Source: a virus. From it: a stretch of 45,608 nucleotides of DNA. Positions 1,930 through 44,257 of this stretch are shown here, one piece after another. The notes beneath the pieces were generated by a model. It was not told where the DNA came from, searched no databases, and saw only the letters and a program-made list of their open reading frames with translations. Position numbers and translations under genes: made by a program. Where the stretch lies: IMG/VR virus record IMGVR_UViG_3300022917_000004, positions 1 through 45,608 of that record; one strand, 5' to 3'. Numbering within the stretch: position 1 is the first letter of the stretch; each line of letters begins with the position of its first letter.

Positions 1930-3024
1930 CTATTTTTGCCCCGAAACCACCCGAATAGCGTCTCCGAGATTCTGCACGCAGGCGTGCGCGTAGACCCTCC
2001 GGACCGTTTCTTCGGTGTCTCCCAAAAGCTGGGCGACGTGGTAGGTCGAGACCTTGCCGGTGTGCAGCAAGTGTGTGGCGCGGCTGTGGCGCAGTACGTG
2101 GGGGAACCCTTTGTGCTCCAGCTTGAGCGACGCCAGAAGCTGTTTGAAGGGGTAGTAAAAATCCAGCTTCGCCCCGAACAGCCAACCGGTGTGCCCGTTC
2201 TCTGCCAGCATCCGCTCGATTGTCGGCCGCAGCTCGTCTGCAATCGGGACGTGTGGACGGCGCTTTTTGCTGCGCCGCTGGAGGATCGTTTCGTCAGGGT
2301 GCCGAAGGTTGATGGTGCCCTGGATCAAATTGATCTGGCCGGGGGTCAGAACCTCAATGGAGCGCCGCCGCGCGCCCGTGTAGTAAGCGATCATGATGAA
2401 ATCGAGCAGATCGCCCTCTGCCCAGCGGAGCAGCGTCTGAAACTCACCCACGGTCAGCCAGACGGTTTCTTCGGCCACGAACTGCGGCTTGAGGATGACC
2501 GGCATGGGGGTCGGGGGGTCGGCTGTTGGGCCAAGGCGCTTGTTCTTTCGGGCGTGGTTGGCCGCCGTCCCGAGTAGGCCAAGCTCGCGGGCAATCGTGC
2601 TGTCCGCCGCCGCGCCATAGTGCTTGCGCCGGTTCATGCCGCCGCCATGCAATCCTTGACGGCGCGCTTCGGTGTATGCGCGGCACAGCGTCTGATCGAC
2701 GTCTGAAAAAGCCACGTCTCCAAAGAACCCCTGGAGGTTGGCGATGATGTTTTCCTGACGGTCCTGGTCGATCACGCCTTTGGACGCGTGCTCGTCCCAA
2801 TACTGGCGCAAGCCTTGGCCGACAGTCAGTCGAGAACCGACTTGGCCGGTGATCGCGTCCTGATTGGTGAGGAAGGCAGCGAAACGAGCTTTCGCTTCAT
2901 CAGGGTCTCGCGTAGCCAGCGACTTGGACTCCGTCCGTCTTTTCGTCTCGTCATACCAGAAGGCGTACCATCGGCCGTTCTTCCGCGTAGCAAGCCAAGG
3001 GACTCTGCTGATGGGCTTTGCCAT
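1930..3024 (-). CDS. int: Tyrosine recombinase (phage integrase)
   Basis: 364 aa; C-terminal catalytic signature ...ARRRSIEVL..., HVLRHSRATHLL, ...VRRVYAH (R..HxxR..Y); N-terminal SAM-like region. Confidence 0.9.
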   Translation of the reverse strand: MAKPISRVPWLATRKNGRWYAFWYDETKRRTESKSLATRDPDEAKARFAAFLTNQDAITGQVGSRLTVGQGLRQYWDEHASKGVIDQDRQENIIANLQGFFGDVAFSDVDQTLCRAYTEARRQGLHGGGMNRRKHYGAAADSTIARELGLLGTAANHARKNKRLGPTADPPTPMPVILKPQFVAEETVWLTVGEFQTLLRWAEGDLLDFIMIAYYTGARRRSIEVLTPGQINLIQGTINLRHPDETILQRRSKKRRPHVPIADELRPTIERMLAENGHTGWLFGAKLDFYYPFKQLLASLKLEHKGFPHVLRHSRATHLLHTGKVSTYHVAQLLGDTEETVRRVYAHACVQNLGDAIRVVSGQK

Positions 3025-3185: not shown

Positions 3186-3612
3186 TAATGAGTTGTGCAA
3201 CCTTGAGGGCACATGCGAGCGACACGACCTGATTGACGCGCAACGAGGCGCGGTCATCGCCCAACACGCGAATATCCAGCGGCGGCGTGGTCTCGCCACG
3301 ACGCGGCAGATTGTTCGCGTTGGGCATCAAGTCTTCGGCGCTAACGCCAAGGGCTTTCGCCAGTGCTTCGAGGTTGACGGGGTTTGGGACGTAGCGCCCG
3401 TGGACATAGCTGGACACTAAATCGCGCCCGAATTGCTTGTCTGGAACGTACTTCGACGCGGCTTTCGCCAGGTCGGTTTGCGTCATCCCTTTTTGGACGA
3501 GCAGACGGTGGAGGCGTTGACCAAACTCACGCTTGAGAACGTCTTTGTGAGCGTAGGCGTCAGTCTCGTTATCAGTCGAGCCAAGACGCCCCATTGGTGG
3601 GGTCTTAGGCAT
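3166..3612 (-). CDS. XRE-family HTH transcriptional regulator (CI-like repressor candidate)
   Basis: QKGMTQTDLAKAASKYV...VSSYVHGRYVPNPVNLEALAKALGVSAEDL is a classic XRE HTH; sits at the head of the xis-int unit; GGGAGC RBS. Confidence 0.75.
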   Translation of the reverse strand: MPKTPPMGRLGSTDNETDAYAHKDVLKREFGQRLHRLLVQKGMTQTDLAKAASKYVPDKQFGRDLVSSYVHGRYVPNPVNLEALAKALGVSAEDLMPNANNLPRRGETTPPLDIRVLGDDRASLRVNQVVSLACALKVAQLINDDSKK

Positions 3613-18766: not shown

Positions 18767-20908
18767 TTATTGCATCGTCGCGCCACCGGCCGGATAGCCA
18801 GGTTGTGGACCCGGTTGATTCGCTACGGGCTTCTCCGCGTTCTGCTTTCCTTGTCCACCCTGTGCAGACGGGTCCGATTGCGCGCCTTGGCCCGCGCCGC
18901 CCATGCCTGGAGGGCCTGCGAGCTGGTTCTGTGCGGCGATGGAGGGCAGACCGGCCTTGTAGAGATCCGCGATGTTAAGGTCGAGTAGATCCGCGTATTT
19001 CTTCGCCAACGGTTTAGGCGAAACTCCAGGGATTTGAAGCACATACGGGGCTGCTCGCTCCAGGTTGGCCAATTCGGCGGCCTTGTTGGGCCGCCCAGAC
19101 GAGCCAGCCTCGACTTCCAATTCCAGGTCTTTGGCGATGGTCTCGCGCGTCGGTCTGGTATCCGGCCAGACAGCGCCGGGTCCGACGATCTCGATGACGG
19201 TCTCTTTTTCGAGTTCGAGCATCATCAAATGGCCGGTTGCTTTGGCCAATTCGCCAAGGAAATCATCAAGCTCGTCGACGTTGTCGGCCTGCGAGGCGCT
19301 ACGCGCACTTTCTGCGATAGAGTTTTCTGTCGCGGTGCCGCCGCTCACACCGCCCATCGCGGCCTCGGACGACCCAACAGACCGCAGAATGTCTTTGTGG
19401 TGTTCCTCGACCTGGTACTGGTTCGGATCAATGCCGGTGTGGTCGAACTTCTGGATTTTCTTGGCGATGTCTTCGCCAACTTGCAGACCTTGCAGCTCCA
19501 GGATCGCGTGCGCCTCGGAGTTGGCGATCTTCGCCTTGTCCTGTTCCTCCAGCGAGCCAGCGCCGGTCACGTATTTCGGCCGGTTGGCGTTGCGGTGCTC
19601 CCGCAGACCCTGGCGCGCACGGTTCACGTCTTTTTGCGGATGCCGCATCAGCCAGACGTCAGACGGCGGAAAGGCTTCTTCCTCGTTTTCGACTTCGTTG
19701 AAAACCAGCGGGAAAAGATTCCAGAAACGCTCCAGTTTGACTGACGGCTCCTGTGGCTCAGATACAAAATCCGGATAGCCCTCCGCGATTGCAAGCTGCT
19801 GTTTATTAGTTTCATCGAAGATTTCCCAGACGCAGACTTCGGCGGTCTTGCTCTTGCGCCGGTCTTGTTTGCCGTTCTCGTCGGTCCGGTACCGCTTGGT
19901 GTAGAGATCACCGATTTTCACGCCGTAGGTTGAAAAGACGCGTTCTGGCGTCATCATGTATTCGCGCGCGTACCAGCCAGCGCCTTCCATCGTTTTGACG
20001 TGGGTCACGCCTGGATCAATGATGATGTCGCGCACTTTTGGCCAAGCAAATACCGGACCTTCGCGGACCACGATCATTTCCTTGTTCTGTAGGTCTTGAA
20101 GGTTGAGACGGAGCTGCTCCAGCTCAGCGTTGCCGTCTGGAACTTTGTCGTCGCCAACTTTTTCCAAAGTGGCTTCGACCGATTTGATCTTGGACGTCAC
20201 GTCCTGAATCTTTGCGGACACGTCCGGGTTAGGCTCAAGGATACGCTGGTAGCCAAGTTGGCAATACGCTGCGCCCGCGACCTTCGCCCGGCGCACCAGC
20301 GCCTTCATCTGTGATTTGAAATTGGTCGCCTGTTCCTTGGTGTAGTAGTCCCACAAAATCTCCAAGGTCTTGCCGAGCTTCTCGACCATCTGCTCGTACT
20401 GCGAGACCTCTTTGATCTCCTGCAAAACCGCAAGATCGTTCGGGTCTGGGCCAGGGACCATCTGGCCCATCGCCGCCATCTGCTGTTGCATCATGATCTT
20501 TTGGATGATGCCTTCGATCTGCTCCTGCGAGCCATCCCAGAGCGAGTACATCAGTTTGGTGCGCGGCTTCGCGGCGACGCGCGGGTCTTTCGCGTAAAGC
20601 GTCGCGACCGCCTGATTGATATGCCGCGGAATCACAGGGACCGTGTACGAGTCCGCTGCAACCCAATCTTTATCGGCCCCGGCGAACGCGAGCTGCTCGC
20701 ACTCGCGCGTGCGCTTGAAGAACTTCTCCCAATGCTTTTTGGCGGACTTGAGCTTGTCTTCCCACTGCGTAATGAGCGCGGCACGCGCGGGATCGACCTC
20801 GGGCACGTCATCCCAAGCTGGCTTCTTCGCCGGGGCTTGCATCCCAAGAGCTTCGGTCGCGTTCATCGCGCCGCCCGCTGGTTCGCCGCCGTAGGTGTCA
20901 GACATCAC
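18767..20908 (-). CDS. Portal protein, 713 aa
   Basis: Directly downstream of and overlapping terL; size; start GTG 20908 or ATG 20905 (TGATG overlap with the terL stop). Confidence 0.7.
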   Translation of the reverse strand: MMSDTYGGEPAGGAMNATEALGMQAPAKKPAWDDVPEVDPARAALITQWEDKLKSAKKHWEKFFKRTRECEQLAFAGADKDWVAADSYTVPVIPRHINQAVATLYAKDPRVAAKPRTKLMYSLWDGSQEQIEGIIQKIMMQQQMAAMGQMVPGPDPNDLAVLQEIKEVSQYEQMVEKLGKTLEILWDYYTKEQATNFKSQMKALVRRAKVAGAAYCQLGYQRILEPNPDVSAKIQDVTSKIKSVEATLEKVGDDKVPDGNAELEQLRLNLQDLQNKEMIVVREGPVFAWPKVRDIIIDPGVTHVKTMEGAGWYAREYMMTPERVFSTYGVKIGDLYTKRYRTDENGKQDRRKSKTAEVCVWEIFDETNKQQLAIAEGYPDFVSEPQEPSVKLERFWNLFPLVFNEVENEEEAFPPSDVWLMRHPQKDVNRARQGLREHRNANRPKYVTGAGSLEEQDKAKIANSEAHAILELQGLQVGEDIAKKIQKFDHTGIDPNQYQVEEHHKDILRSVGSSEAAMGGVSGGTATENSIAESARSASQADNVDELDDFLGELAKATGHLMMLELEKETVIEIVGPGAVWPDTRPTRETIAKDLELEVEAGSSGRPNKAAELANLERAAPYVLQIPGVSPKPLAKKYADLLDLNIADLYKAGLPSIAAQNQLAGPPGMGGAGQGAQSDPSAQGGQGKQNAEKPVANQPGPQPGYPAGGATMQ

Positions 20909-23346
20909 CAGCCCTTTACCAATTTGAGGCGTGTACCTTCACGCGTCTTCGCCTGGGCGTTTTCCAAGATCCACTGGATCGAGCCGCTCGCGTGTTTGGC
21001 GCGCGGGATCGACCGGATCGTCGGCCGGATCTCTTTGTTCAATCCCATGCCGATGTGCGCCAGCCAATCGACAAAGTCATCATTAGCGCCAGCCGGAAAG
21101 CGCAGAAGCTGCGCCCTCGCGGCTGGCCACCAAGGCGCACGGCGGGGGAACCGCACCTTACGCATCCGCATCCGGCCCTGGATGGATCTTGCTCTCAGCG
21201 ATTTGTCTTTAGACGGCGTCACCGCGTCTACAGACGTGTAGATCTTTTCCTCGCGCATCCGCTTGTAGAGGAACGGGCCAAACGACTTCGAAATAAGCTC
21301 GCTCTCCATCCACCAGAGTAGCGGTTTGTGCAAAGCGAACTGCGCCAGCATTTCCTCGACGGTGCGATCAGTCTCCAATCGGTCCCAGACCAGATCAGGC
21401 AATACCCAAAGATCATCATTTTCGTCGACGCCCACGCAGCCGAGCACAGTGTAGTCACGCCCTTGTGCTTTCGAGACGGCGTGGTCCGACGCGCCGTATT
21501 TGCGGAGCTGCTTCGGCAGCTCGCTCATGTCGTATTCGACAATGTCTTCGGCGCGGAAATACGAGCCATCGTCCGGCGATGGCTTGCCCATGCGTAGCGC
21601 GGAGAAGCCGACCGGGTCGTTGTGCTTTGCTTCGGCCAAGAAAGTCAGCGGAAACTTTTCTTCCCACAGCGACGCCATCGGCTGGGTGCCGAACTCGCGG
21701 ACGATGATCGGATCTGTCTGGACACGAAGCTCCAACTCCAGCGCCTTGGCCAAGCCAGTTTCAGTGACGACAGCGGGAATGTTGAAGTAATCCCACTTTT
21801 CCTCGATGCCCTGGTAGCCGCCATCGGCGACGGGTCTTTTTCGTCCGGGATGGTCTGGGTCGCAAAGACGGCCGATTAGGTCGTCTTCGTGCCATCTCGT
21901 GTTCGAAGTCCACAGACCGTTGGCGAGAAAATTATGCGTTCCGTCGACCGTCAGGTCGTAGACTCGTTCCACACCAAACGAAGTTACGCTCTCGACAACG
22001 TCAGTATCGGGTTCTGACGTAGTCGATGGCGCGTTCCAGAATTTCGGTATCTCTAGTTCGGCCTGCGATTCGGTTGCAATCGTTGCATAGGAGTCCGCGC
22101 AGTTTTCCCGTCGTATGATTGTGGTCGGGAACGAGGTTTGTGACCCAATGCCGTGGCCTGCCAACGCTCCCGTCAGTCCGGCAAATGGCGCAAAGCCCAC
22201 CTTGCTCAGCGAACATGCGGTCGAAACTCTCCGCATCAATTCCGTAGCGGCGCTTACGGCGAAGCTCCAAACGCCTCGATGAATTGACTGAGGGCGGTCT
22301 TGACCCGGAAGCCCACTTCGCCTTGGCGTAGTGCGTACTGCACAGCCCTCGACATTTCGCGGGGACTGAGCAGTCGTCGGCCGAACAGATGAGTCCTTTG
22401 TACGAACCGCGCTTTGCGCCACGATACGCATCCCACGCCGCAAGTTTCTTGTTCTTACCCACCGCAACCCCCCGTCTGAAAGAACCAGAAACGGATGCCG
22501 CGCGTTCGCTCGGACTTCCGTTCCACTCGTTCTAATCAAATAGGTTTGGTCATTACCAACGTCAATGGCGGCGGTAACTTTTCGGCCGACAGTTTTTAAC
22601 CCATCCCAAGAGACAACCCGGTCGCCCGGCGCGACTGCGTCCAGACGCTTAGAACTTCCGTCAGCCATCGAGATTTGTGTGTCGCCGGTCAGGCAATGGA
22701 CGACCACTATGGGCGTCTTGCCGTGGCAGCGTGTGAAGACGACACGATTGAACCATTTCCAAATCTTGTCACGGTACGTTGGGCTGTTCGCGTCTTCGTC
22801 GTTACGAATTGGATCGTCGACAAAGAAGAAATCGGCGGGCTTACCAGTGCCCGAGCCGCCAACACCAACGAACGCAAGTTTCCCACGCTGTTGCGTAATG
22901 AGAAGATCTTTCGACGCGCCGCCTTTATCCAGCTTGTACTCTGGAAATACTTGGGCGTAGCCAGCACTGTTGATGAGTTGCCGAACGTCGTCGCCAAACT
23001 CATTGGCAAAGTCCTGATTATACGCGCCGACCATGATGTGGCGGCGTGGATCTCTACCGGAAATCCACGCCGGACCTCCCCGAGTCAAAACCTGGCTCTT
23101 TCCCGTCTGCGGTGAGATCGAGACGGCAACGCGCTTGCGCTTGCCCTTCTCGACGTCTTCCAAGATCTCGCAAAGTAGTTTCGCCTGGGGCGTGACCGTG
23201 TAGAGCGACTTGGTGACGTCGTCCAAGGAATTAGGATCTGGCATCGTCAAGCGCATGAACGGAAGCAGTTTGTTGTGCGCGTCTTTAATCGCCAAAAGAC
23301 GACGCGCTGCGTGGAGCAGCTCGTGCTTGGCGGCGCTCACTAACAT
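20905..23346 (-). CDS. terL: Terminase large subunit interrupted by a 265-aa intein (mature TerL about 548 aa)
   Basis: Walker A SPQTGKS, Walker B FFFVDD, then TRWHEDDL after the insertion; C-terminal nuclease region with ...GASDHAVS... and VLGCVGVDENDDLWVL. Confidence 0.85.
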   Translation of the reverse strand: MLVSAAKHELLHAARRLLAIKDAHNKLLPFMRLTMPDPNSLDDVTKSLYTVTPQAKLLCEILEDVEKGKRKRVAVSISPQTGKSQVLTRGGPAWISGRDPRRHIMVGAYNQDFANEFGDDVRQLINSAGYAQVFPEYKLDKGGASKDLLITQQRGKLAFVGVGGSGTGKPADFFFVDDPIRNDEDANSPTYRDKIWKWFNRVVFTRCHGKTPIVVVHCLTGDTQISMADGSSKRLDAVAPGDRVVSWDGLKTVGRKVTAAIDVGNDQTYLIRTSGTEVRANARHPFLVLSDGGLRWVRTRNLRRGMRIVAQSAVRTKDSSVRPTTAQSPRNVEGCAVRTTPRRSGLPGQDRPQSIHRGVWSFAVSAATELMRRVSTACSLSKVGFAPFAGLTGALAGHGIGSQTSFPTTIIRRENCADSYATIATESQAELEIPKFWNAPSTTSEPDTDVVESVTSFGVERVYDLTVDGTHNFLANGLWTSNTRWHEDDLIGRLCDPDHPGRKRPVADGGYQGIEEKWDYFNIPAVVTETGLAKALELELRVQTDPIIVREFGTQPMASLWEEKFPLTFLAEAKHNDPVGFSALRMGKPSPDDGSYFRAEDIVEYDMSELPKQLRKYGASDHAVSKAQGRDYTVLGCVGVDENDDLWVLPDLVWDRLETDRTVEEMLAQFALHKPLLWWMESELISKSFGPFLYKRMREEKIYTSVDAVTPSKDKSLRARSIQGRMRMRKVRFPRRAPWWPAARAQLLRFPAGANDDFVDWLAHIGMGLNKEIRPTIRSIPRAKHASGSIQWILENAQAKTREGTRLKLVKGW
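21901..22695 (-). mobile_element. Intein within terL (residues 218-482 by my count)
   Basis: Starts CLTGDTQI directly after IVVVH; block B-like ARHPFLV; ends VYDLTVDGTHNFLANGLWTSN with +1 Thr of TRWHEDD. Confidence 0.8.
22001..22462 (-). CDS. Homing endonuclease of the T4 endonuclease VII family, 153 aa, encoded inside the intein in a different reading frame
   Basis: RRYGIDAESFDRMFAEQGGLCAICR...LVPDHNHTTGKLRGLLCNDCNRIAG signature; N-terminal C..C...C..H finger; GTG start with GGGGGG 5 nt upstream; frame offset 2 relative to terL. Confidence 0.75.
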   Translation of the reverse strand: MGKNKKLAAWDAYRGAKRGSYKGLICSADDCSVPAKCRGLCSTHYAKAKWASGSRPPSVNSSRRLELRRKRRYGIDAESFDRMFAEQGGLCAICRTDGSVGRPRHWVTNLVPDHNHTTGKLRGLLCNDCNRIAGRTRDTEILERAIDYVRTRY

Positions 23347-23364
23347 TGTTGTGTTCTCCGCTGT

Positions 23365-26300
23365 TTACGCTGGCCGCGCCTCTAGCTTGCCTTCAAGGTC
23401 AGCGACGCGCGCCCGCAGCGCCTTCAACTCTTGCAGAAGCACCGGGACATATTTGCTGTAGTCCACGCCCCACCAATCAGCTTCTTTGTTGTAAGTGATC
23501 GCGGTTGGATAAACCTCGTTCGCCTGCTGCGCGACGATGCCGTAGGACCGTTCGCCCGTTGTTTTCCACGCGAAATCATAGACGTTCGTGTTGTCCACTA
23601 TGTTGCCAGCGTCGAACGACTTGAGGTCTTCCTTAAGCCGCGCGTCGGACGATGTGTTGTAGGACACCGATGAGGTGGCCTGCGAAATTGAACCCGTCAG
23701 CGCGGTGCTGGCATTCAAAAAGACCATTGGCCCGACACCGCCAGACGTATCGGTGGCCGATTTAAATGCCATGCCGTAGGATGTACTGCTACCCGGATAC
23801 TTAAGGCCAACCGAGGCGTTGAAACCAAAATCGGCAGCAACCGCACCACCAAACAGCGTATTGAATACAGCGGTATCATCCACCTTGAGTTGGAACGTAC
23901 GCAGCCGGGCGTTCAACGATATGTTGGCGAAATAACTATTGATGACGCGCCAAGCATCGTGGTTTGGTACGCCGCCCTCCCACACCTGTTGACCGAGCGG
24001 AAAATAGCAGTTGAGGGCGGTGCCGAGCAGCCGCGCACCGGCCAGCATTGGCCGTGCCATTTCCTTGGCAACCAATCCATTGAAATTGACATGAGGTTGG
24101 ATTGGCGACACCCAACCCATTGCCGCGCTGCCCAACTCGGCCCAGTATTGCACGCCTGCTGAGCAAGTGCCGGTGATAGTCCCGTCGATTTCCACCACCA
24201 CGTCATGCAGCGTGGCAGGCGTGCCAAGCACTTGCGTGCCGCCCGAACTCTTGTAGCTGTGCAACACCATCAACGATTGCGTCGATGGCGTTGCGCCGAT
24301 TTGCACGTCGAGGTGCAACTTGCAGCGGATTTTGCAGCCACCTTCAAATGACGCAGGCAAGCCTTGCTGTGCCGTTATTGCAATCAAGAAATTTGTAAAG
24401 GGTGTGGTGCCGCGCGTCCTAAGCCAGATTTCACTTTCAGTGTAGCTCGCATTCACATCAGTGGCCGGATAAGCATACCCCGCCACCATCACCGCCTGAT
24501 TGACAAAGTTATCAACATCAACGCGCGCTTTGAGGCCACGACAGCCATAGCAAATGATTGCGCGGCCAACGTGATTGCAAACCACGTCGTAGGTGCAATC
24601 ATCGCCGTCATATTGGCCATCAATCGCATAATACAATTCAGAAATCTTGCCGGTGAATGTCAAGTTAGAGCAGCGCGGCGCAGCGCCAGCCGCGCGCACA
24701 CAACCAAACCCAGTGTGGCCGCCAGCCAGATCGCCATTCAAAAAGTGAATGCTTTTCGATCCATTCTCGCACAGCACATGGCGCAAATTCCCAACCGTAA
24801 AATCGGTGTAACCATAATCGTGTACCGACTTGAAGCCTTGCACCCACACATCGCGGCAGGCGTTGAAGCGCACCACGATGGTGCTGGATGCTGTCGGATA
24901 TTTGATATGCAAATAAGCGCCGTTGAAATACCAGCGCAGCCCCTTCACTGATGCAAACGGCATCAACACGGTGCCGGTGGTGGAGATAGAGGCGTTGGTC
25001 GGCCAGACGATGTATTCTTGATTGGGATAGCAATGCAGCGTCAGCCCGCCGCCGACTGCGTTGACGTAATTCGCCAAAGCTAAAAACGCCAACGTGTCAT
25101 CGTTGGCGGCACCACCTTTGATGCCAACCGCTTCGATGAACATGTCGTCTTGCTGTTGCGACAGGTGCCATGAAACGCCACCCCCGTCTGTCACTGGCAA
25201 GCGAGCCGCCACGCTGCCGCGCTCATACCATGCGGGTGCGTGCGGATGCGCCGCCGAATAGCGGCCAATCCGAATGCGCGAAACCGTCGCCGGAATAATT
25301 TTGCCCGCCAGATCGGTGCGGCTTTCAACTTCGATGCTGCCACCGCCGCCGCTGCCACCGCCGCTAACCGCGTCAACGTATTGCTTGGTGGCGGCGTGCA
25401 GAGGATTGATTGGATCGCCAAGCAGCTTGAGGCGTCCCGCCGCGCCCTCAAGCCGCATCATTTCAACGCCGGTCGCGGTGAAGTTGCCTGATGCGTTAAA
25501 TACTAGATCGGCGCTTGAGGTTGGGGCTACGAGTTGCATTCCCATCCGGCAGACAGTTTTGGTCAGGTCGCCATTCAGCGTCCAATCAATGGCGGCGATG
25601 TTAGGGAAATCCGCAAATCCGCCGTCAATTCCTAAAAACGGTACCGCATTGTCCGGGATAGCCATCTGCCTAGCAATACGCAGCGGACCCGTCATGCCGT
25701 CGCCCGTCTTGGCGACTTTGGTGTCGGCATACGATTTGTTAACGACGTGGCTGGGGCTAGTCGGCACCCCGTCGGTACTCGGGACATTCTGACCCCGAAC
25801 TATGTAGAGTGGATTGAGCGCCGTACCCGCATCATTCCATCCGGTGACAACAAAATTGTCGCTAGCGCTGCCATCGCCGTAGATCACTTGCCAGCGGTTT
25901 ACACCAGCACGTTGACCGCGCACCGCGTTCGCAAAAGACTCGGCAGCATTTAAGAATAAAAAATTATGATAGGCTGGAGCGGCAAGCGTTAAATTCCCAG
26001 TCATGGTGTCGCCAGCCTTGGCGACCTTTTCGGTGTCCAGCTCTTGGATCGCCACCTGCACGTTGTTCGCGGCGACGTTTCCAGACGGCGTGAACGGAAT
26101 ACCGGCCGCGCTGGTCGCGGCGACCGCGATCCAGCCCGCGTCTTTTCGTCCGTAGGTCGAGCCGTTGATCGGCGCTTCGGCTATGCCGCCAACAACGGTG
26201 GTCGTGCCTGCATCGCCCGCGCGGGTGAACTCCACGTTGAGCGTGTCCAAAGACGCAAAAGACCCGGAGTGGGTGACGTAGCTCACTGGCACTTGTAGCC

Positions 26301-27129
26301 AAGAGGTAACGTCAGAGACCGCACCAGTGATCTTGAAGACCACGAAATTCTGCGCCGCCGACGCTTTGCGAATCGTGATCTGGCCTTTCGACGGATTGTT
26401 GGAGTCATCCCACGTCGCCACCCAATCGGAAACGTCTGGATTGCCGGTGATCGAGGACAACGCGCTCAACGCGATCTGTGTCACAGACGGCAGCGCCACG
26501 TTGTCGAAGCGCACGTTGCCGGTGCCGGGATCTATCATCGTGGTTGTAGTGGCGTACTTCCACGGAAACGCGTTCGCGGTCGCCGCTTGAGCCGCACTCG
26601 CCGCTGCTGCCGCCGCACTGTTCGACGCGTTGGTCGCAGACCCAGCGGCAGCGGTCGCACTACCAGCAGCGTCGGTCGCACTTGTGGCTGCTTGACCAGC
26701 GGACACAGCCGCTGCGGCAGCAGCCGCTTCCGCGTCGGTGGTCGCTTGCGTGAAGTCGGCCAACAAAACCCATTTGCCAGCGGCTAGGTCTGTTGCAAAG
26801 ACAGTGGACGTGTGGCTGATCTCGCAAAGATAAAAACCGTTGTCCGCAAAGACCGTGTCGCCCGGGAAGTAATCGTACCCCGGCACCCACGGCTCTGGCG
26901 CACCAAACCCGAGCAGCACTTCGTCTTTTAACTGATCGCGGCCAACCGAACCATTCTCCAACGCACCATCGTCACGTTGAATCAGATCAAGATGCTGGAT
27001 GATGTCGTCAGTCGTAATCTTGATCGCATTGTATTCCTGATCGAGCTTCGGAGCCGGATACGGGTCCGTTGGCGCGAGCGCCTGATCGTTCTGGAGGTTC
27101 GTGATGCGGTCGTATGGGATGATCGCCAT
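23365..27129 (-). CDS. Tail fibre/tailspike, 1254 aa, with an Ala-rich coiled region, a beta-helix (pectate-lyase-like) depolymerase region and a C-terminal S74 intramolecular chaperone domain
   Basis: GGAANDDTLAFLALANYV region typical of tailspike beta-helices; C-terminus SSDARLKEDL...YGIVAQQANEVYP...VDYSKYVPVLLQELKALRARV matches Peptidase_S74. Confidence 0.75.
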   Translation of the reverse strand: MAIIPYDRITNLQNDQALAPTDPYPAPKLDQEYNAIKITTDDIIQHLDLIQRDDGALENGSVGRDQLKDEVLLGFGAPEPWVPGYDYFPGDTVFADNGFYLCEISHTSTVFATDLAAGKWVLLADFTQATTDAEAAAAAAAVSAGQAATSATDAAGSATAAAGSATNASNSAAAAAASAAQAATANAFPWKYATTTTMIDPGTGNVRFDNVALPSVTQIALSALSSITGNPDVSDWVATWDDSNNPSKGQITIRKASAAQNFVVFKITGAVSDVTSWLQVPVSYVTHSGSFASLDTLNVEFTRAGDAGTTTVVGGIAEAPINGSTYGRKDAGWIAVAATSAAGIPFTPSGNVAANNVQVAIQELDTEKVAKAGDTMTGNLTLAAPAYHNFLFLNAAESFANAVRGQRAGVNRWQVIYGDGSASDNFVVTGWNDAGTALNPLYIVRGQNVPSTDGVPTSPSHVVNKSYADTKVAKTGDGMTGPLRIARQMAIPDNAVPFLGIDGGFADFPNIAAIDWTLNGDLTKTVCRMGMQLVAPTSSADLVFNASGNFTATGVEMMRLEGAAGRLKLLGDPINPLHAATKQYVDAVSGGGSGGGGSIEVESRTDLAGKIIPATVSRIRIGRYSAAHPHAPAWYERGSVAARLPVTDGGGVSWHLSQQQDDMFIEAVGIKGGAANDDTLAFLALANYVNAVGGGLTLHCYPNQEYIVWPTNASISTTGTVLMPFASVKGLRWYFNGAYLHIKYPTASSTIVVRFNACRDVWVQGFKSVHDYGYTDFTVGNLRHVLCENGSKSIHFLNGDLAGGHTGFGCVRAAGAAPRCSNLTFTGKISELYYAIDGQYDGDDCTYDVVCNHVGRAIICYGCRGLKARVDVDNFVNQAVMVAGYAYPATDVNASYTESEIWLRTRGTTPFTNFLIAITAQQGLPASFEGGCKIRCKLHLDVQIGATPSTQSLMVLHSYKSSGGTQVLGTPATLHDVVVEIDGTITGTCSAGVQYWAELGSAAMGWVSPIQPHVNFNGLVAKEMARPMLAGARLLGTALNCYFPLGQQVWEGGVPNHDAWRVINSYFANISLNARLRTFQLKVDDTAVFNTLFGGAVAADFGFNASVGLKYPGSSTSYGMAFKSATDTSGGVGPMVFLNASTALTGSISQATSSVSYNTSSDARLKEDLKSFDAGNIVDNTNVYDFAWKTTGERSYGIVAQQANEVYPTAITYNKEADWWGVDYSKYVPVLLQELKALRARVADLEGKLEARPA

Positions 27130-33599: not shown

Positions 33600-35618
33600 C
33601 TAATCGTCCTCGTCTTCCGAATTATCGGGATTATTTTGCAAATACCCTTGCTGCCGCAGCCGCGAGATCGCCTTCCGCATGGCGACGTCTTTTACCGCCG
33701 CGAGCAAGTTGTCGGGTTCGTTGGCCTTGAGCCAGACCAAGAGACCCTTGGCCCCCACCGTGTGGACTTCGACGTCTTTGGCCTTGGCCCAGCGCGAAAT
33801 CGTCTCAGCCAGCGCCTTTTCAGACGGCGTCATTTCCTCGGAAAATTCTTCCTTGGCGTCGTCGCACCACACGGCCACCGCCGACGTGACGTCGAGGCCC
33901 TCCGGTGTCTTTCCCAGGTTCACTACTTCGAGCCGGAACCACAGCGGCGAAGACGGCAGCTCGCCGTCTCTCACGCGGAGCACCTTGAAGCTCCGTCTTG
34001 AACCCTTTTTGCCCTGCCCCGGATCGTGGACCTCGATCAGCGTATCCACCCAGCCTCGGAACGCGGAGCTACCGCGCGGTCCCTTGCTGGCGTCTTTACC
34101 CGGGTGGTGGATCACCAAGACGTTCGCCCCGGTGGTGTTCTTCACGATCTTGGCGTTGTGAATGAACAGGTTCATGTGTTCGACGTCCGTGCCGCCAGCC
34201 AGTGCCTCGGACAGCGTGTCGATCACCACCAGCCTGATGGGCTGGCCCATTTCCTCGCCGCGCTGTTTGATAAGCTCGCACAGCCGTTTCGCGTCATAGG
34301 TGCCGGTCCGCATGTCGATGGCGTAGCGCAGGAGCCTCATGGGCACGTTGGTTTTGCCGTGCTTGGTCCGGAGTGCCCTAAACCGCTTTCGGATCGTTGG
34401 GCCGCCTTCTGCGGCGACATAAAGGACCGCTCCCTGCGTGACCTTCCGGCCGTTCCACGGGGTGCCGGTGGCGATGGCGTGGCATATGTCGAGGGCCGCG
34501 AAGGATTTCCCCGATTCAGGGTAGCCATAGATCGCGCTGATTTCGCCTTGGCCCATGATGCCGTGGATCAGCGGGTTGGACTGATTGTCCAGCGCCGTGT
34601 CGGCGGCTTCGTCGAAGCTCTCGTCCAGCATGGGTTCGCGGACGTGTTTCGAAAAAGTGCTCGGGTCGTCTTTGTCGTCTTTCGGTTGTTGGGCCGCTGT
34701 AGGTTGTTCATCCCCACTATTCTCAACATCGAACTCATTCAAAGCACTTGCCGCGCCCGGAGCGTTCTGGCCGTAAGCGTAAGCATTCCTGACCTTTGTT
34801 CGCAGTGCGTCGTAGGCCCAAGGCGGCACGGCTTTTTGTTCGTTCCAATTGTCGAACATCAGGTCCAGGCATTTTTCCTCGGAGATCCCAAGGTCTTTTA
34901 TGTGAGCGGCCACCCGATAGGTCGCTTGATCGCCCCCAGATCCCTCGATGGCTTCTGGCGCGTGGTTGATGATCCATCGCTTTACGGTTTCGATGGCCTC
35001 TGGCCGGTCCAGTTCACCGATGGGTTGCTTGTTGTTCGTGGATTCGTTTTGTTGTTGGGCCGGATCGCCCTTGGCTGCGGCCGTCTCCAATTCCGCTGGC
35101 ATAAAAGCGATTTCGTCGAACTCGCCTACCCGATGGTATTCCACGCCCTCGATGATCGCGCCTTCGCCTATGACGTAGCCTCTGACACCTCGCACATCGA
35201 CATTTGGTGCAATGCGGGATTGCGAGTTGGGAATCGGTCTGAGGCTCCAATAATATTTGTGGATACCGTTGGGAGTTTTGATCGTGCGTGTGTCTGCCAG
35301 ACCAAACAGGGTGTGTTGCGCCAGTGCTTTTGCGCCTAATTGGCCGGGTTTCATGTCGTAGTCGACGACGACCAGATAGACGTCGACCTCGACGCCGTTG
35401 ATGACGATTCGTTTTGTGAATCCGCACGCGACGGCTGGATTGAAGTCCTCCAGTTCCCACAAGCGAGTCAGCGTTTCGCTATTGGTGGTGGCGCGCTCTG
35501 GCCATTTGGCTATGGCTGGGGTTTTTGCGTTCGGCTTGGCCGGGAAGATTCGCAGTTGATCGGTGTTTGCACTTCGTAGTGCGGCTTGGAGCAGTTTCTT
35601 TTCGCTGCGCGACAGCAT
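33600..35618 (-). CDS. Bifunctional primase-polymerase / replicative helicase (Prim-Pol N-terminus, PriCT-like middle, RepA/AAA_25-like C-terminus), 672 aa
   Basis: IFPAKPNAKTPAIAKW...VVVDYD; ATYRVAAHIKDLGISEEKCLDLM; Walker A GYPESGKS and LVVIDTL Walker B. Confidence 0.8.
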   Translation of the reverse strand: MLSRSEKKLLQAALRSANTDQLRIFPAKPNAKTPAIAKWPERATTNSETLTRLWELEDFNPAVACGFTKRIVINGVEVDVYLVVVDYDMKPGQLGAKALAQHTLFGLADTRTIKTPNGIHKYYWSLRPIPNSQSRIAPNVDVRGVRGYVIGEGAIIEGVEYHRVGEFDEIAFMPAELETAAAKGDPAQQQNESTNNKQPIGELDRPEAIETVKRWIINHAPEAIEGSGGDQATYRVAAHIKDLGISEEKCLDLMFDNWNEQKAVPPWAYDALRTKVRNAYAYGQNAPGAASALNEFDVENSGDEQPTAAQQPKDDKDDPSTFSKHVREPMLDESFDEAADTALDNQSNPLIHGIMGQGEISAIYGYPESGKSFAALDICHAIATGTPWNGRKVTQGAVLYVAAEGGPTIRKRFRALRTKHGKTNVPMRLLRYAIDMRTGTYDAKRLCELIKQRGEEMGQPIRLVVIDTLSEALAGGTDVEHMNLFIHNAKIVKNTTGANVLVIHHPGKDASKGPRGSSAFRGWVDTLIEVHDPGQGKKGSRRSFKVLRVRDGELPSSPLWFRLEVVNLGKTPEGLDVTSAVAVWCDDAKEEFSEEMTPSEKALAETISRWAKAKDVEVHTVGAKGLLVWLKANEPDNLLAAVKDVAMRKAISRLRQQGYLQNNPDNSEDEDD

Positions 35619-37189: not shown

Positions 37190-37750
37190 GTGGTGTGCTG
37201 GCTACCGAAAAACGCGGCTGATGCCGCCATGAGAACATGGAAACCAAAGATGCAAATGACGCTGACGATCACTGCGGAGAACCCGTCCGAAATGGCGAAC
37301 GTGCTCCAGGCGCTGCAAACCGCTGGAGTAACTTCGCCAGTGCGGCTGGTGACAGACGCGCCAAAGGCGAACCCGATACCCGAGAGCATCAAGTCGCCGG
37401 AAGTGGTCGAGACCGAGCCTGAGCCGCCAGCGCCACGGCGTGGCCGTCCGCCCAAGGGCGACAAGCTCAAGGTCGTCCCGAAAGACGAACCCGAGGCTGA
37501 AAAAGACCCCGAGCCAGAACCGAAAAAAGACATCACGGTCTTGGACGTGCGCGCTGCGTTGACGCAGTTCCTCGCGGCCAACGACGAAGCCGCTGCCGCT
37601 GTGCTGCTCAAGAAGCACGGCCACACCGACCGGCTGTCTCAGCTCAAGCCTGAATACTTCGAGGCGGTCTACCACGCGGCTGTCACGCCGATTGTGAAAG
37701 ACGCGCCTGCGATGTTCGACGACGAGATCCCCGATCTGGGCCGCGCCTAA
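37190..37750 (+). CDS. Hypothetical protein with an AT-hook-like RRGRPPKG and an acidic/Pro-rich linker, 186 aa (start uncertain)
   Basis: ORF track; GTG 37190 or downstream ATGs. Confidence 0.5.
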   Translation: MVCWLPKNAADAAMRTWKPKMQMTLTITAENPSEMANVLQALQTAGVTSPVRLVTDAPKANPIPESIKSPEVVETEPEPPAPRRGRPPKGDKLKVVPKDEPEAEKDPEPEPKKDITVLDVRAALTQFLAANDEAAAAVLLKKHGHTDRLSQLKPEYFEAVYHAAVTPIVKDAPAMFDDEIPDLGRA

Positions 37751-38904
37751 TGGCACACGCTGTCTTTGCACCGTCCAGCGCGTACCGCTGGTTCAAATGC
37801 CCCGGCTCGATCCGCATGTGTGCGGACGTGGCAGAGTCTTCGTCTGTGTACGCGGACGAAGGCACGGCGGCACACGAACTGGCGGCGTTGTGTTTGCAGG
37901 ATGGCGAAGACGCCGCTGTGCATGTCGGGAAAGTTATCAACGTTGGCGAGCGGCACTTTGTCGTTGACGACGAAATGGCCGACGCGGTCCAGGTTTTCTT
38001 GGACTTAGTGCGGTCTTTTGTTGAAGACGGCTATGAGCTGCGATCCGAAGTAACGCTCGATCTTGGCCATCTATGGCCGGGGCAGTTCGGCACTGGTGAC
38101 GCGGTGTTGTTTCACGCGGAGCACGCTGATCTCCAGATTGCGGATTTCAAATACGGCAAGGGGGTCGTGGTCGAGCCAGAAGAAAATCCGCAACTGCTGT
38201 CTTACTTGTCTGGCGCGGCGCGGCTCTATCACAACCACAACGTCCAGACTGTCTCAGCGCATATCGTGCAACCGCGCGTGCCGGGGGCCGCTCCCGTCAA
38301 ATCATGGGAGACCACCGTCGAACGCTTGGCGGATTTTGAATCAGAGTTCCGGACAGCGGCCGAGAACGCCTCCCGGCCGGACGCTCAAATGGTTTCAGGG
38401 AACCATTGCCAATTCTGCCCCGCAGCGGGCTTCTGTCCGGAGCTGCGGGGAGCTTCCCTTAAAATAGCGCAAGCCGAGTTTGCAGACGACGTGATCGAAC
38501 TTCCGTCTGTGGAAAAACTCACGGCCAAGCAGCTTGGCGCGATCATGTCAGAGGTCGCACTGGTCGAAGCCTGGTGCTCTGCCGTCCGCGATCACGCCTT
38601 GGCGTCTGCGCTCGATGGCAAAACTCCGGACGGCTTCAAGCTGGTGGCCAAGCGCACTCACAGGCGCTGGATCGACGAGGCCAAAGCCGCTGGCGCATTG
38701 CGGACGCTCTACGATCTGGAAGACGCCGCGCTCTATACGCGGAAATTGGTCTCGCCAGCGCAAGCCGAAAAGTTGGTCGGCAAGGCCAACTCGAAGGGGC
38801 TTGGCGTTCTGACGACGAGTCCGTCCGGTGGCGCGACGCTCGCGCCGCTGTCCGATAAGCGCAAACCAATTTCGGTCGATGCCGCCGACGAGTTCGGAGA
38901 GTGA
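37750..38904 (+). CDS. PD-(D/E)XK nuclease, DUF2800 family (Cas4/RecB-like)
   Basis: N-terminus MAHAVFAPSSAYRWFKCPGS is typical of DUF2800; DFKYGKG core; C-terminal Cys cluster CQFCPAAGFC. Confidence 0.75.
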   Translation: MAHAVFAPSSAYRWFKCPGSIRMCADVAESSSVYADEGTAAHELAALCLQDGEDAAVHVGKVINVGERHFVVDDEMADAVQVFLDLVRSFVEDGYELRSEVTLDLGHLWPGQFGTGDAVLFHAEHADLQIADFKYGKGVVVEPEENPQLLSYLSGAARLYHNHNVQTVSAHIVQPRVPGAAPVKSWETTVERLADFESEFRTAAENASRPDAQMVSGNHCQFCPAAGFCPELRGASLKIAQAEFADDVIELPSVEKLTAKQLGAIMSEVALVEAWCSAVRDHALASALDGKTPDGFKLVAKRTHRRWIDEAKAAGALRTLYDLEDAALYTRKLVSPAQAEKLVGKANSKGLGVLTTSPSGGATLAPLSDKRKPISVDAADEFGE

Positions 38905-41943: not shown

Positions 41944-42269
41944 GCCGTCTGCCGCCAGATATTTTCGAGCCGCTCACGCGGGCGAGACGGGGCGATCCTG
42001 AAACGTCTCTTGAAGCGGCGGAAGGTATCGCGCCTCGGATGAATGCGCTGCGTCAGGTCGTATTGAATCATTTCGCAGTGCGTGGCGACATGACCGATCT
42101 GCAACTGCAAATTCTCTGCGCCAACCACGGGGCTACCTTTCGCACGCGGCGCGCTGAGCTTGTGCAAATGGGTCTTATACGAGATTCCGGCAGGCGCACC
42201 GTACAGCTCAAACGCAACCGCATCATCTGGACGCTCACGCAACTTGGCCGGGAGGCTGCTAAACCGTGA
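41940..42269 (+). CDS. Winged-helix (MarR-like) DNA-binding protein, 109 aa
   Basis: ...QVVLNHFAVRGDMTDLQLQILC...RRAELVQMGLIRDSG...; GTGA overlaps on both sides. Confidence 0.5.
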   Translation: MSRLPPDIFEPLTRARRGDPETSLEAAEGIAPRMNALRQVVLNHFAVRGDMTDLQLQILCANHGATFRTRRAELVQMGLIRDSGRRTVQLKRNRIIWTLTQLGREAAKP

Positions 42270-44257
42270 GCGTCGATTGCCATATCGACCTTGAAACGCG
42301 TTCCGCCGTCGATCTGCGAAAGACGGGCGTACACGTCTACGCCGAAGATCCCACGACCGACGTGTGGTGCGCCTGCTACGCGTTCGACGATGGCCCGATA
42401 AAGACGTGGATGCCTGGCGAACCATGTCCGACAGAGATCGTCGCGCACGTTCTCAAGGGTGGCCGGTTTTGGGCGCACAACGCTGCGTTCGAGCGAACCC
42501 TTTGGGCGAGCGTCTTGCACCTACGCTACGGCTGGCCGTTGCCCGCACCAGAACAGTGGGACTGCACGATGGCGCGGGCCTACTGCATGGCGCTGCCCGG
42601 CTCGCTCGATAGCGCGTCTGCGGCGCTGGGCATCAACGAAGCGAAAGACCCGGCTGGCTACCGGACCATGCTCCGCATGTCCAAGCCGCGTCGCTACGAG
42701 GAAGACGGTTCGCCGGTCTGGTGGGATGACCCGCCCCGCGTCGCGCAGCTCGTCGCCTACTGCGGCCAGGACGTGGTCGTGGAGCGCGCACTACACGCCC
42801 GTCTGATGGATCTGCGTCCGCTGGAAAGGTTGATCTGGCTGCTCGACCAGAAGATCAACGACCGCGGGGTCTACGTAGATCGCGCGCTATGCGAGGCGGC
42901 CAAGCCGATCATTCGAGACACGCTGCTCAAGCTCAACGCCGAAATGCGGAGCGTCTCGAAAGGGTTTATTCCGAGCTGCGACGCGGTCGCCAAGATCGTG
43001 GAGTTCTGCCAGCACCGTGGCGTCGACGCGGACTCGATACGCCGCGACGAAGTCGCGGAGCTGCTGTCGCAAGAGCTTCCGTCCGATGTGAGACGGGTTT
43101 TGGAATTACGCGCCGAAGCTGGCAAAGCAGCCGTCAAGAAAATCGACGCGCTGCTGCTGGGCTGTTCGAAAGACGGCCGCGCCAAAGGGCTTCTGGCGTA
43201 TCACGGAGCGTCTACGGGAAGATGGAGCGCAAGGCGCTTTCAGCCGCAGAACCTCAAAAGACCAAAAGACAAATCGCAAGAGAGCTTGATCCCGATTGTC
43301 ATGACCGGGTCGGCCAGCGCCGTGGAGCTTTTGGCCGGGCCTCCTTTGGAAGTAGTAGGCGATGTCATCAGGGGCATGATTACGGCTGCGCCCGGCGCGA
43401 TGCTGTTTGCGGCGGATTTCGCCAGCATCGAGTCTCGGGTGCTCGCGTGGCTGGCTGGCGAGCAGTGGAAGGTTAAAGCGTTCGAAGAATTTGACCGTGG
43501 CGGGGGCGCGGATATGTACCGCCAGACCTACGCCCGCGCGTTTGGTGTCTCGGTCAACAGCGTGAACGGCGATCAAAGAACTATCGGGAAGGTCTTGGAT
43601 CTTTCCCTTGGTTTTCAGGGAGGACAGCGGGCGCTCCAGTCGATGGCCAAGATTTATGGTATAGAGATCGAAGACGACCGCGCCGACGAGCTTAAAACAG
43701 CCTGGCGTGACGCACATCAGAACATAAAACAGTTTTGGTACGACGTCGAAGACGCGGCACTGCGCGCAGTAGGCAATCCCGGCAAAACCAAGCACTGCGA
43801 TAAGCTCGCGTTCAAGACCGCTGGGAGTTTCTTGTTCATGCGCCTCCCAAGCGGGAGAGCGATCACATATCCCTACCCCAAGCTCAAAGAGATCAAGACG
43901 CCGTGGGGCAGCACGAAGCTGTCGCTCACGTATAAATCCGTTATCAGTCCAGCCAACACCAAGCGCATCGTCAAAGACGACCTCAACTCGTCGAATTGGG
44001 CGCGGATCTCAACTTACGGCGGCTCGCTGGTGGAGAACGCCACGCAGGCGGTGGCGCGCGACGTCATGGCCGAAGCGATGCTGCGTGTAGACGCCGCAGG
44101 CTACCCGCCCGTCCTTACAATTCACGATGAAGTTGTCAGCGAGCGTGCTGGCGGCAGCGTCGCTGAGTTTGAGGATCTTATGGTGCAACCGCCCGCGTGG
44201 GCCGGTGGTCTCCCAATCGCCGCAGAGGCGTGGAGCGGGCCACGGTATCGGAAATGA
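42266..44257 (+). CDS. Family A DNA polymerase with 3'-5' exonuclease domain, 663 aa
   Basis: Exo I IDLETRS; motif A FAADFASIESRVLAWL; motif B RTIGKVLDLSLGFQGG; motif C LTIHDEVV. Confidence 0.9.
   Translation: MSVDCHIDLETRSAVDLRKTGVHVYAEDPTTDVWCACYAFDDGPIKTWMPGEPCPTEIVAHVLKGGRFWAHNAAFERTLWASVLHLRYGWPLPAPEQWDCTMARAYCMALPGSLDSASAALGINEAKDPAGYRTMLRMSKPRRYEEDGSPVWWDDPPRVAQLVAYCGQDVVVERALHARLMDLRPLERLIWLLDQKINDRGVYVDRALCEAAKPIIRDTLLKLNAEMRSVSKGFIPSCDAVAKIVEFCQHRGVDADSIRRDEVAELLSQELPSDVRRVLELRAEAGKAAVKKIDALLLGCSKDGRAKGLLAYHGASTGRWSARRFQPQNLKRPKDKSQESLIPIVMTGSASAVELLAGPPLEVVGDVIRGMITAAPGAMLFAADFASIESRVLAWLAGEQWKVKAFEEFDRGGGADMYRQTYARAFGVSVNSVNGDQRTIGKVLDLSLGFQGGQRALQSMAKIYGIEIEDDRADELKTAWRDAHQNIKQFWYDVEDAALRAVGNPGKTKHCDKLAFKTAGSFLFMRLPSGRAITYPYPKLKEIKTPWGSTKLSLTYKSVISPANTKRIVKDDLNSSNWARISTYGGSLVENATQAVARDVMAEAMLRVDAAGYPPVLTIHDEVVSERAGGSVAEFEDLMVQPPAWAGGLPIAAEAWSGPRYRK

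Follow-up and report, generated by a model that had tools for sequence, protein, structure and literature searches.

How can one stretch of a phage gene contribute both to an intein and to a separate protein read in another frame? The question is raised by the gene for the large terminase subunit (terL) in IMG/VR virus record IMGVR_UViG_3300022917_000004, whose 45,608 nucleotides were analysed as a whole (the window). An earlier note, made from the letters alone, had described an intein in terL with a homing endonuclease overprinted in a second open reading frame (ORF). We conclude that the locus is very probably a composite selfish element, a 'non-canonical intein' in which a class-1 HINT intein at the TerL6-f site carries a formerly free-standing endonuclease VII-family gene in its loop, in the +2 frame. 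Computational support covers the anatomy, the folds, the conservation of catalytic residues, frame-specific selection and a disjunct distribution.

An intein inserted precisely in TerL

The terL gene and the parts of its insert are as follows.

20905..23346, minus strand: terL precursor ORF, 813 aa, 90.7 kDa, Terminase_6 family, uninterrupted in the ORF listing
22696..23346, minus strand: N-extein coding region, TerL residues 1-217, ending ...TPIVVVH; joined to the C-extein in the intein-less proteins P0001-P0006
20905..21900, minus strand: C-extein coding region, opening with TRWHEDDL (ATPase C-motif or coupling motif)
21901..22695, minus strand: intein, 265 aa, 28.5 kDa, Cys1 to Asn265 with Thr at +1; matches Intein_splicing and PDB mini-inteins
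22408..22695, minus strand: N-terminal HINT splicing half, intein residues 1-96, with block A (CLTGDT) and block B (RANARHPF); all-beta, predicted local distance difference test score (pLDDT) 85-94
22018..22407, minus strand: terL-frame linker, intein residues 97-226, pLDDT ~30, no secondary structure
21901..22017, minus strand: C-terminal splicing half, intein residues 227-265, with blocks F/G (VYDLTVDGTHNFLANGLWTSN); pLDDT 86-94, matches PDB mini-inteins

The terL frame is open for all 813 codons, as the earlier note had read it, and profile searches match Terminase_6N (Pfam) and PHROG terminase large subunit families on both sides of the insert. The 265-codon insertion at TerL residues 218-482 was also placed correctly. 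PIVVVH and TRWHEDDL are adjacent in intein-less TerL homologues, and the junction between VVVH and TRWHEDDL is precise. After excision a TerL of 548 aa remains; it shares 84-87% identity with homologues that have no intein and are 548-551 aa long. Judging from an alignment of the flanks of intein-less and intein-bearing alleles, 20905..21900 plus 22696..22716 presumably reconstitute the homing target of the intein-less alleles.

The insert starts with CLTGDTQI, contains RANARHPFLV and ends in THNFLANGLWTSN, followed by TRWHEDDL, so that every intein block that the note had claimed lies where it was placed. The Pfam profile Intein_splicing is matched with 44-48 bits, above its cut-off of 35.8. 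The splicing residues Cys1, His67 (in RANARHPF), Asn265 and Thr+1 are present, and the first three are invariant across the intein alignment. The AlphaFold2 model of the intein matches the Ssp and Npu DnaB and the Mtu RecA mini-inteins by fold (probability 1.0, target-normalised TM 0.75-0.85). Two details had been called non-canonical. Both are present, but they are family traits and not defects: the block B Thr is replaced by Asn family-wide, giving N-A-R-H here and N-x-x-H in all relatives including the Chandler/Phlyer group, and the penultimate residue is Ser instead of His in the window, in the viable Gordonia phage Nordenberg and in loci L004 and L006.

Between the splicing halves the terL frame encodes the Ser/Thr/Arg/Ala/Pro-rich sequence that had been noted as lacking an endonuclease motif. 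Ser, Thr, Arg, Ala, Pro and Gly together make up 58% of the linker versus 39% of the extein, and a Pfam search of the terL-frame product gave no match within residues 97-226. The linker is predicted to be a disordered loop, the read-through product of the +1 frame of the endonuclease gene described below.

TerL is essential for the phage, and the cultured phages that bear the cassette are viable. The intein of Chandler gp6 belongs to the same family as that of the window (it is H60 among the tblastn matches described below); Kelley et al. 2016 (PMC5050341) found it to splice efficiently when placed in a reporter. By analogy with this homologue, the window intein is expected to splice.

Two other kinds of insertion were considered and ruled out. 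A split intein or fractured gene is incompatible with terL as one continuous ORF; because the host frame runs on for 813 codons, the intein is of the cis-splicing kind. A group I or II intron is ruled out by the uninterrupted host frame, which encodes a HINT domain, and by an Rfam scan of the whole window in which no family reached its gathering score; the scan thus indicates neither an intron nor a frameshift element.

A predicted zinc-binding endonuclease in the +2 frame

The nested gene contains two sets of conserved residues.

22001..22462, minus strand: nested endonuclease VII-like ORF, a putative homing endonuclease, 153 aa, 17.2 kDa, isoelectric point 10, in the +2 frame of terL
22331..22387, minus strand: N-terminal Cys/His knuckle, C26, C31, C41 and H44 (C-C-C-H), invariant in 25 homologues
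22073..22192, minus strand: His-Me finger core, C91, C94, D113, H114, H116, C126, C129 and N130, invariant in 25 homologues

The 153-aa ORF that had been read from 22462 to 22001 with a shift of two nucleotides is there, and the frame offset is (23346-22462) mod 3 = 2. It matches Pfam Endonuclease_7 (PF02945) with E=1.2e-19 and 70.4 bits versus a cut-off of 23.6, over profile positions 2-81 of 82, as well as PHROG endonuclease VII families. The note had recognised both the T4 endonuclease VII signature and the N-terminal finger by eye, and its suggestion of profile searches on both frames is borne out, with Intein_splicing and Endonuclease_7 each above the Pfam cut-off.

The AlphaFold2 model of the endonuclease (pLDDT 80) has Hpy99I and T4 endonuclease VII as its top Foldseek matches (probability 0.97-1.0; structures 1e7l, 2qnf, 1en7 and 3fc3), and these two proteins are the best matches by sequence as well. 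The core residues align to the C23-N62 region of T4 endonuclease VII. The beta-beta-alpha-metal motif is complete, with four Cys zinc ligands and the catalytic Asp-His...His...Asn, and all 12 zinc-binding and catalytic residues are kept in the window. From sequence and model, the nested product is predicted to be a basic zinc-binding nuclease of the His-Me-finger type. Hidden Markov models of the endonuclease alignment and of the HINT halves, run over the whole window, found a single copy only.

The overall structural reading of the earlier note therefore stands: a HINT intein at a TerL ATPase motif, a double-coding linker of ~130-150 codons and an endonuclease VII-type gene with its own start.

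Selection on the two frames

The window and ten relatives (11 lineages) were compared in a codon alignment by the Nei-Gojobori ratio of non-synonymous to synonymous substitution rates (dN/dS). In the terL frame the splicing halves gave 0.16 (N-terminal) and 0.15 (C-terminal). Within the overlap the endonuclease (+2) frame gave 0.12, the terL frame 1.28 and the non-coding third frame 1.72. The periodicity of substitution changes in the same places. In intein codons 1-85 and 231-265 variation peaks at terL position 3; in codons 91-230 it peaks at terL position 2, the third position of endonuclease codons. Because dN/dS and substitution periodicity both favour its frame, we count the endonuclease as a functional protein-coding gene under purifying selection. 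The terL-frame linker appears to be under no amino-acid-level constraint except that of staying open. The comparison that the note had called for thus finds both frames open in relatives, with amino-acid constraint inside the overlap confined to the endonuclease frame.

How surprising is it that the terL frame stays open? Synonymous codons of the endonuclease ORF were resampled with local codon usage and fixed amino acids. Chance alone would leave the terL frame open with a probability of 0.06 in the window and 0.03-0.22 in homologues; 1.3-2.5 stops would be expected. It is an intrinsically stop-poor alternative, the third frame having 5-13 stops, and the figure of about 1 percent in the earlier note was too low for one sequence. 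The note's suggestion of selection for read-through is supported in another way: the frame is open across the endonuclease in all of the more than 30 diverged copies with an intact TerL, which indicates that stop codons have been purged.

Start and stop of the nested gene

The signals at the two ends of the endonuclease gene are embedded in intein codons.

22460..22462, minus strand: endonuclease start GTG, whose TG forms the first two bases of the intein Trp79 codon (cgG TGg)
22468..22473, minus strand: GGGGGG Shine-Dalgarno-like run, ending 5 nt before the GTG, in intein Gly-Gly codons
22001..22003, minus strand: endonuclease stop TGA, spanning terL-frame Thr-Asp codons just ahead of the C-terminal splicing half

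The GTG and the G run 5 nt upstream had both been proposed and are confirmed, and the geometry is widely shared. An ATG or GTG overlaps the Trp codon (xTG/G, the slash marking the codon boundary) in 34/34 loci (13 + 21), and in each of the 34 it is the first start codon past the upstream in-frame stop. Relatives have a purine stretch like GGAG, GGGG or AAGG upstream of it, within an intein Asp/Glu-Gly turn. The TGA stop, which the note had placed where the block F region begins, is at the equivalent place in 13/13 loci. The whole geometry (Trp-codon start, upstream purine run, stop before the C-terminal half) recurs in more than 30 independent loci.

Could the endonuclease instead be made by a -1 ribosomal frameshift in terL, for example at C GGG GGG (22468..22474), as a fusion of N-extein, intein N-half and endonuclease? 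The endonuclease frame is indeed the -1 frame of terL, it is open in the window for 23 codons upstream of the GTG, and the G6 run lies just upstream. The G run, however, is not conserved, and no frameshift element was found by Rfam. A stop in the endonuclease frame stands immediately before the start in L009, L091, L096 and L103 and 3-5 codons upstream in many others; across these four and L005, L012, L084, L085, L086, L093, L095 and L097 the distance is 0-5 codons. The start codon itself is held at one spot in all 34 loci. Frameshifting is thus very improbable. Because the start position is conserved and stops sit just upstream of it, these sequences argue for internal initiation at the nested start and against a frameshift fusion.

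An assembly or sequencing artefact, in which two compensating indels would hide an in-frame endonuclease, could be entertained because the locus is judged from assembled sequence and not from reads. Against it, the same +2 relation, start and stop recur across more than 30 loci that were assembled independently of one another, and also in cultured actinophage genomes finished by Sanger or Illumina sequencing, and no relative has the endonuclease in frame inside an intact TerL. We give this explanation almost no weight.

Elements that might control expression were also sought. Terminator-like sites in 21700..23500 are not commoner than in shuffled sequences. RNAalifold on 12 loci (alignment A3, corresponding to 22433..22522, minus strand) returned a weak helix of -8.8 kcal/mol with a covariation term of ~0, pairing the block B His-Pro codons (AUCCGU) with the endonuclease start region (AUGGGU). 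The helix shows no covariation because coding fixes both of its sides, and it is not used as evidence here. Nothing speaks in favour of this helix as a mask of the start codon until terL ribosomes pass.

Distribution and mobility

Loci with the cassette are viral contigs and prophages, assigned to ~9 bacterial phyla. In IMG/VR there are 11 (L003-L013), with endonucleases 68-76% identical, the TerL frame open in all and 5-13 stops in the third frame. In a scan of GTDB with one genome per species, 19/20 of the best matches are nested identically and come from many phyla. They lie in genomes and metagenome-assembled genomes (MAGs) of, among others, Anaerolineae, Mycolicibacterium, Sulfuritalea, Oribacterium, Dysosmobacter, Kistimonas, Vulcanimicrobiota, Opitutaceae, Gallionellaceae, Saccharimonadales, Geobacteraceae and Caulobacteraceae; one match lies on a 948-kb contig of Bradyrhizobium tropiciagri. 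The genomic context of protein homologues yielded three additional nested copies. Among cultured phages, tblastn with the 153-aa ORF found 39 records, actinophages only, each under a terminase gene. They include Chandler, Phlyer, Nordenberg, Keitabear, Angelicage ('Angelicase' in the preprint), Affeca and Sedona; the last four serve as examples in Gosselin et al. 2025. Translations of Phlyer and Nordenberg have the intein at the identical junction and the endonuclease in the +2 frame.

The cassette does not follow the relatedness of the TerL proteins that carry it. The closest TerL exteins (84-87% identical) are without the insert, and it is exteins sharing only 25-48% identity with the window TerL that harbour the nearest inteins (64-77% identical) and endonucleases (68-76%). 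Since near TerLs lack the cassette and distant ones have it, always at the same site, this scattered and extein-incongruent spread has the form expected of a homing element.

This distribution also bears on the possibility that the endonuclease has been domesticated for packaging, as an aid in branch resolution or terminase cleavage, and is nested for co-expression and not for mobility. Parallels exist, in that branched DNA is resolved by T4 endonuclease VII (gp49) ahead of packaging and some terminases are helped by HNH proteins, and the ORF lies within a packaging gene, on the same late mRNA, under strong purifying selection. Syntenic intein-less phages of 47-48 kb with 84-87% identical TerL, however, carry no endonuclease VII homologue within the 14-22 kb examined around terL. 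Furthermore, the cassette is scattered over very different TerL lineages at a single site, which is the signature of a homing element, and LAGLIDADG inteins or a mini-intein occupy the identical site instead. We regard domestication as quite unlikely.

A slightly less unlikely alternative, though still improbable, is that the window holds a fixed relic: the intein splices while the endonuclease is untranslated or inactive and decaying, a de facto mini-intein with a junk loop that is inherited vertically. Decaying copies do exist elsewhere (the 49-aa endonuclease of L104 and the broken TerL of L099), the window start is a GTG, no near-identical copy was found in a different extein, and Gosselin et al. 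describe inteins of this type as 'ambiguous' in their distribution. Yet dN/dS in the endonuclease frame is 0.12 across 11 lineages, and the window copy has a full-length ORF with its 12 zinc and catalytic residues, conserved start, Shine-Dalgarno-like run and stop all intact. The closest TerL relatives, moreover, are without the insert.

Some copies and records deserve separate mention. In L104 (uncultured bacterium, CAIQQO010000477.1) a TAG cuts the endonuclease ORF to 49 aa and TerL is open for 1001 codons; here the endonuclease is decaying while TerL read-through stays selected. In L099:2544-4743 (uncultured alphaproteobacterial MAG, CAVVPW010000008.1) the TerL frame ends within the N-half of the intein, what remains of that half is fused in frame to the endonuclease VII domain in an ORF of 202 aa, and the C-part of TerL follows in another frame. 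Either the prophage has degraded or the assembly is wrong. L089 (Oribacterium sp. HCP28S3_H8) and L090 (Dysosmobacter sp. HCP28S3_G4), from one study and different genera, share identical ORF coordinates and junction peptides and represent either one shared prophage or cross-contamination. Close homologues of the endonuclease in the protein database (P0121-P0142) come almost only from contigs of 0.5-2.3 kb with truncated terL. The nested family is systematically under-annotated, because gene callers report terL alone on longer contigs.

A model for the cassette

We favour the composite intein, which would work as follows. Ribosomes on terL would cross the endonuclease gene in its +1 frame, which has no stops, and make a 90.7-kDa precursor. 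Intein residues 1-96 and 227-265 would form the HINT domain, with residues 97-226 as a loose disordered loop. Splicing through Cys1, Asn265 and Thr+1 would yield a 62-kDa TerL, with VVVH-TRWHEDDL restored, and a 28.5-kDa nuclease-free intein. Separate initiation at the internal GTG (22462), aided by the G-rich Shine-Dalgarno-like run, would produce the 17-kDa nuclease. When different phages infect one cell, or when a prophage is encountered, the nuclease may cut an intein-less terL at or near the C-motif coding sequence, and recombinational repair would copy the whole intein-plus-endonuclease cassette into the cut allele. The intein would thus render the insertion harmless to the phage, and the endonuclease would render the cassette mobile.

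Several points weigh against this model. The intein model was built on a shallow 12-sequence alignment. The window intein has Ser for the penultimate His and its endonuclease starts with GTG where most relatives have ATG, and reduced activity is conceivable in both cases. A scan of 21700..23500 found no sigma-70-like promoter inside terL, so the terL (late) mRNA would have to serve for the endonuclease as well, at the same time as it is read in another frame. Recent homing of the window copy is not demonstrated, because the copies found in other exteins are at most 77% identical and because no co-conversion tract is visible: the window exteins, set against three intein-less syntenic phages, show no jump or drop in identity beyond motif conservation. 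Translation of the nested gene by internal initiation, the activity and target specificity of the nuclease, target cleavage and homing are what we infer; splicing is experimental for a homologue.

Three forms of one intein lineage

The TerL site between VH and TRWH also holds homologous inteins, with splicing halves 38-49% identical, in two other states. One is a ~332-aa intein with an in-frame LAGLIDADG endonuclease (Pfam LAGLIDADG_3 or Hom_end; P0011, P0022 and similar proteins of 871-885 aa). The other is a 171-aa mini-intein in P0028 (719 aa). All three forms diverge and rejoin at two identical points. Because one lineage at one site thus exists in mini, LAGLIDADG and endonuclease VII-nested forms, these alignments fit the invasion of an intein loop by a free-standing endonuclease gene. 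We somewhat favour the view that the cassette is a single ancient composite mobile element with a fixed overlap geometry, which has moved among the TerLs of phages of ~9 phyla and is not specific to actinophages. On this view the endonuclease invariably occupies the one frame whose alternative reading has few stops by nature.

Another endonuclease type is nested in a comparable way. L083:90-3464, on a Fimbriiglobus sp. MAG contig (JBOFPB010000308.1), encodes a 1124-aa TerL with two inteins. The second, near the C-terminus (AHDDQ/CLVAGT...LLVHN/CDVL, slashes marking the junctions), contains a 206-aa Pfam HNH_3 ORF in the +2 frame (E=1.7e-15, 2606-3226). In six IMG/VR loci (L169-L174), too, an HNH_3 ORF is nested in a host frame that stays open for 700-890 codons and has intein-like ends. 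A TerL intein overprinted with an HNH_3 ORF in its +2 frame may be an undescribed sister architecture, since it is absent from the four non-canonical arrangements of Gosselin et al. 2025.

Relation to known systems

The earlier note knew of no described precedent, and in this it was mistaken. Gosselin et al. 2025 had described the same architecture for phages of actinobacteria, including an in-frame region without recognisable structure, and 'non-canonical inteins' with homing endonucleases in alternative frames were already proposed in Gorbalenya 1998; the dnaX intein of cyanobacteria, a further case, has a 2026 analysis. Gosselin et al. 2025 propose invasion by free-standing homing endonucleases, as do Dassa et al. 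(PMC2677866).

The closest known system is the 'TerL6-f' intein, which Kelley et al. 2016 (mBio, PMC5050341) placed at the C-motif of Terminase_6 TerLs in B3/B4 mycobacteriophages; the C-motif label of the site is theirs. Its members include the Mycobacterium phages Chandler, Phlyer and Pipefish and the Gordonia phages Nordenberg, Vivi2 and Keitabear. The window shares with them the insertion immediately ahead of TRWH(E/P)(D/E)DL, the +2 ('frame 3') overlap, the start on an intein Trp codon and an in-frame linker without structure. Its splicing halves are 46-59% identical to those of Nordenberg, and the endonucleases are 43-48% identical. Unlike these cultured carriers, which are actinophages only, the window phage is apparently not an actinophage. 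It has a GC content of 59%, its nearest named TerLs are from Bradyrhizobium and Mesorhizobium prophages (~60%), and it has no DNA-level similarity to any INPHARED phage.

The cyanobacterial dnaX intein (Gorbalenya 1998; Phillips, DeSimone and Gogarten, bioRxiv 10.64898/2026.09.14.751524), likewise has a +2-frame endonuclease overprinted in its loop. The 2026 analysis reports purifying selection on the endonuclease frame with a relaxed host frame, a result of the kind obtained here, and proposes secondary invasion of a mini-intein. Its endonuclease, however, is a LAGLIDADG enzyme and not an endonuclease VII-type His-Me finger, the host gene is another one and the host is cellular.

Other systems share single aspects. 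Fractured genes (Dassa et al. 2009, NAR, PMC2677866) have a free-standing, self-translated endonuclease gene at the endonuclease position of the intein, but host gene and intein are split into two trans-splicing ORFs, whereas the host frame in the window is continuous. ShiLan-type HNH insertions in phage DNA methylases (Arsenault et al. 2025, Genes, PMC11855218) also hide a nuclease in an alternative frame of an open host gene, and a GTG start was proposed there too. They have no splicing domain and the host protein retains the loop, whereas the HINT domain of the window would remove the insert. Canonical bifunctional inteins, with a LAGLIDADG or HNH domain in frame, and group I introns with free-standing homing endonuclease ORFs share the homing logic and the insertion at a conserved catalytic motif, and in-frame LAGLIDADG versions of the window's own intein lineage occupy the same TerL site. 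In contrast to canonical inteins, the endonuclease of the window does not form a domain within the intein polypeptide. In contrast to group I introns, splicing would take place at the protein level and not in RNA, and there is no Rfam intron match.

The host phage

The window is a 45.6-kb, 59% GC phage-like genome that encodes an integrase, endolysin, major head protein, portal and tail fibre, and it has the appearance of a temperate phage genome that is complete or close to it. A tRNA search of the window found none. Other features are listed below.

1930..3024, minus strand: tyrosine integrase
23365..27129, minus strand: tail fibre, 1254 aa, with a C-terminal Peptidase_S74 chaperone domain
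33600..35618, minus strand: primase-helicase with Prim-Pol and AAA_25
37750..38904, plus strand: DUF2800/PD-(D/E)XK nuclease
42266..44257, plus strand: family A DNA polymerase

The terL stop overlaps by 4 nt (GTGA, 20905..20908) with the earliest potential start codon, a GTG, of the 713-aa ORF that lies downstream at the portal position, which suggests that the two genes are translationally coupled.

A blastn search of the region against INPHARED phages gave no match. Among named TerLs, those of Bradyrhizobium and Mesorhizobium prophages come closest (58-60% identity), and the nearest cultured phage TerLs are only 36% identical. The host is apparently non-actinobacterial and probably alphaproteobacterial; a Hyphomicrobiales-like host is tentative because it rests on these TerL identities.

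Implications

The architecture and its interpretation were already in the literature, and no new category is opened here. The window copy and its metagenomic and prophage relatives extend the overprinted TerL intein well beyond actinophages. They add clean evidence of frame-specific selection and a conserved architecture for internal translation start. A single 460-nt stretch codes for two products under very different selection, and annotation pipelines never call the nested gene, which is relevant for annotation. The finding supports the view of intein evolution in which splicing comes first and an endonuclease invades later. If the cassette is indeed one ancient composite element, the coexisting LAGLIDADG, mini and endonuclease VII forms would be a natural series of endonuclease gain and swap.

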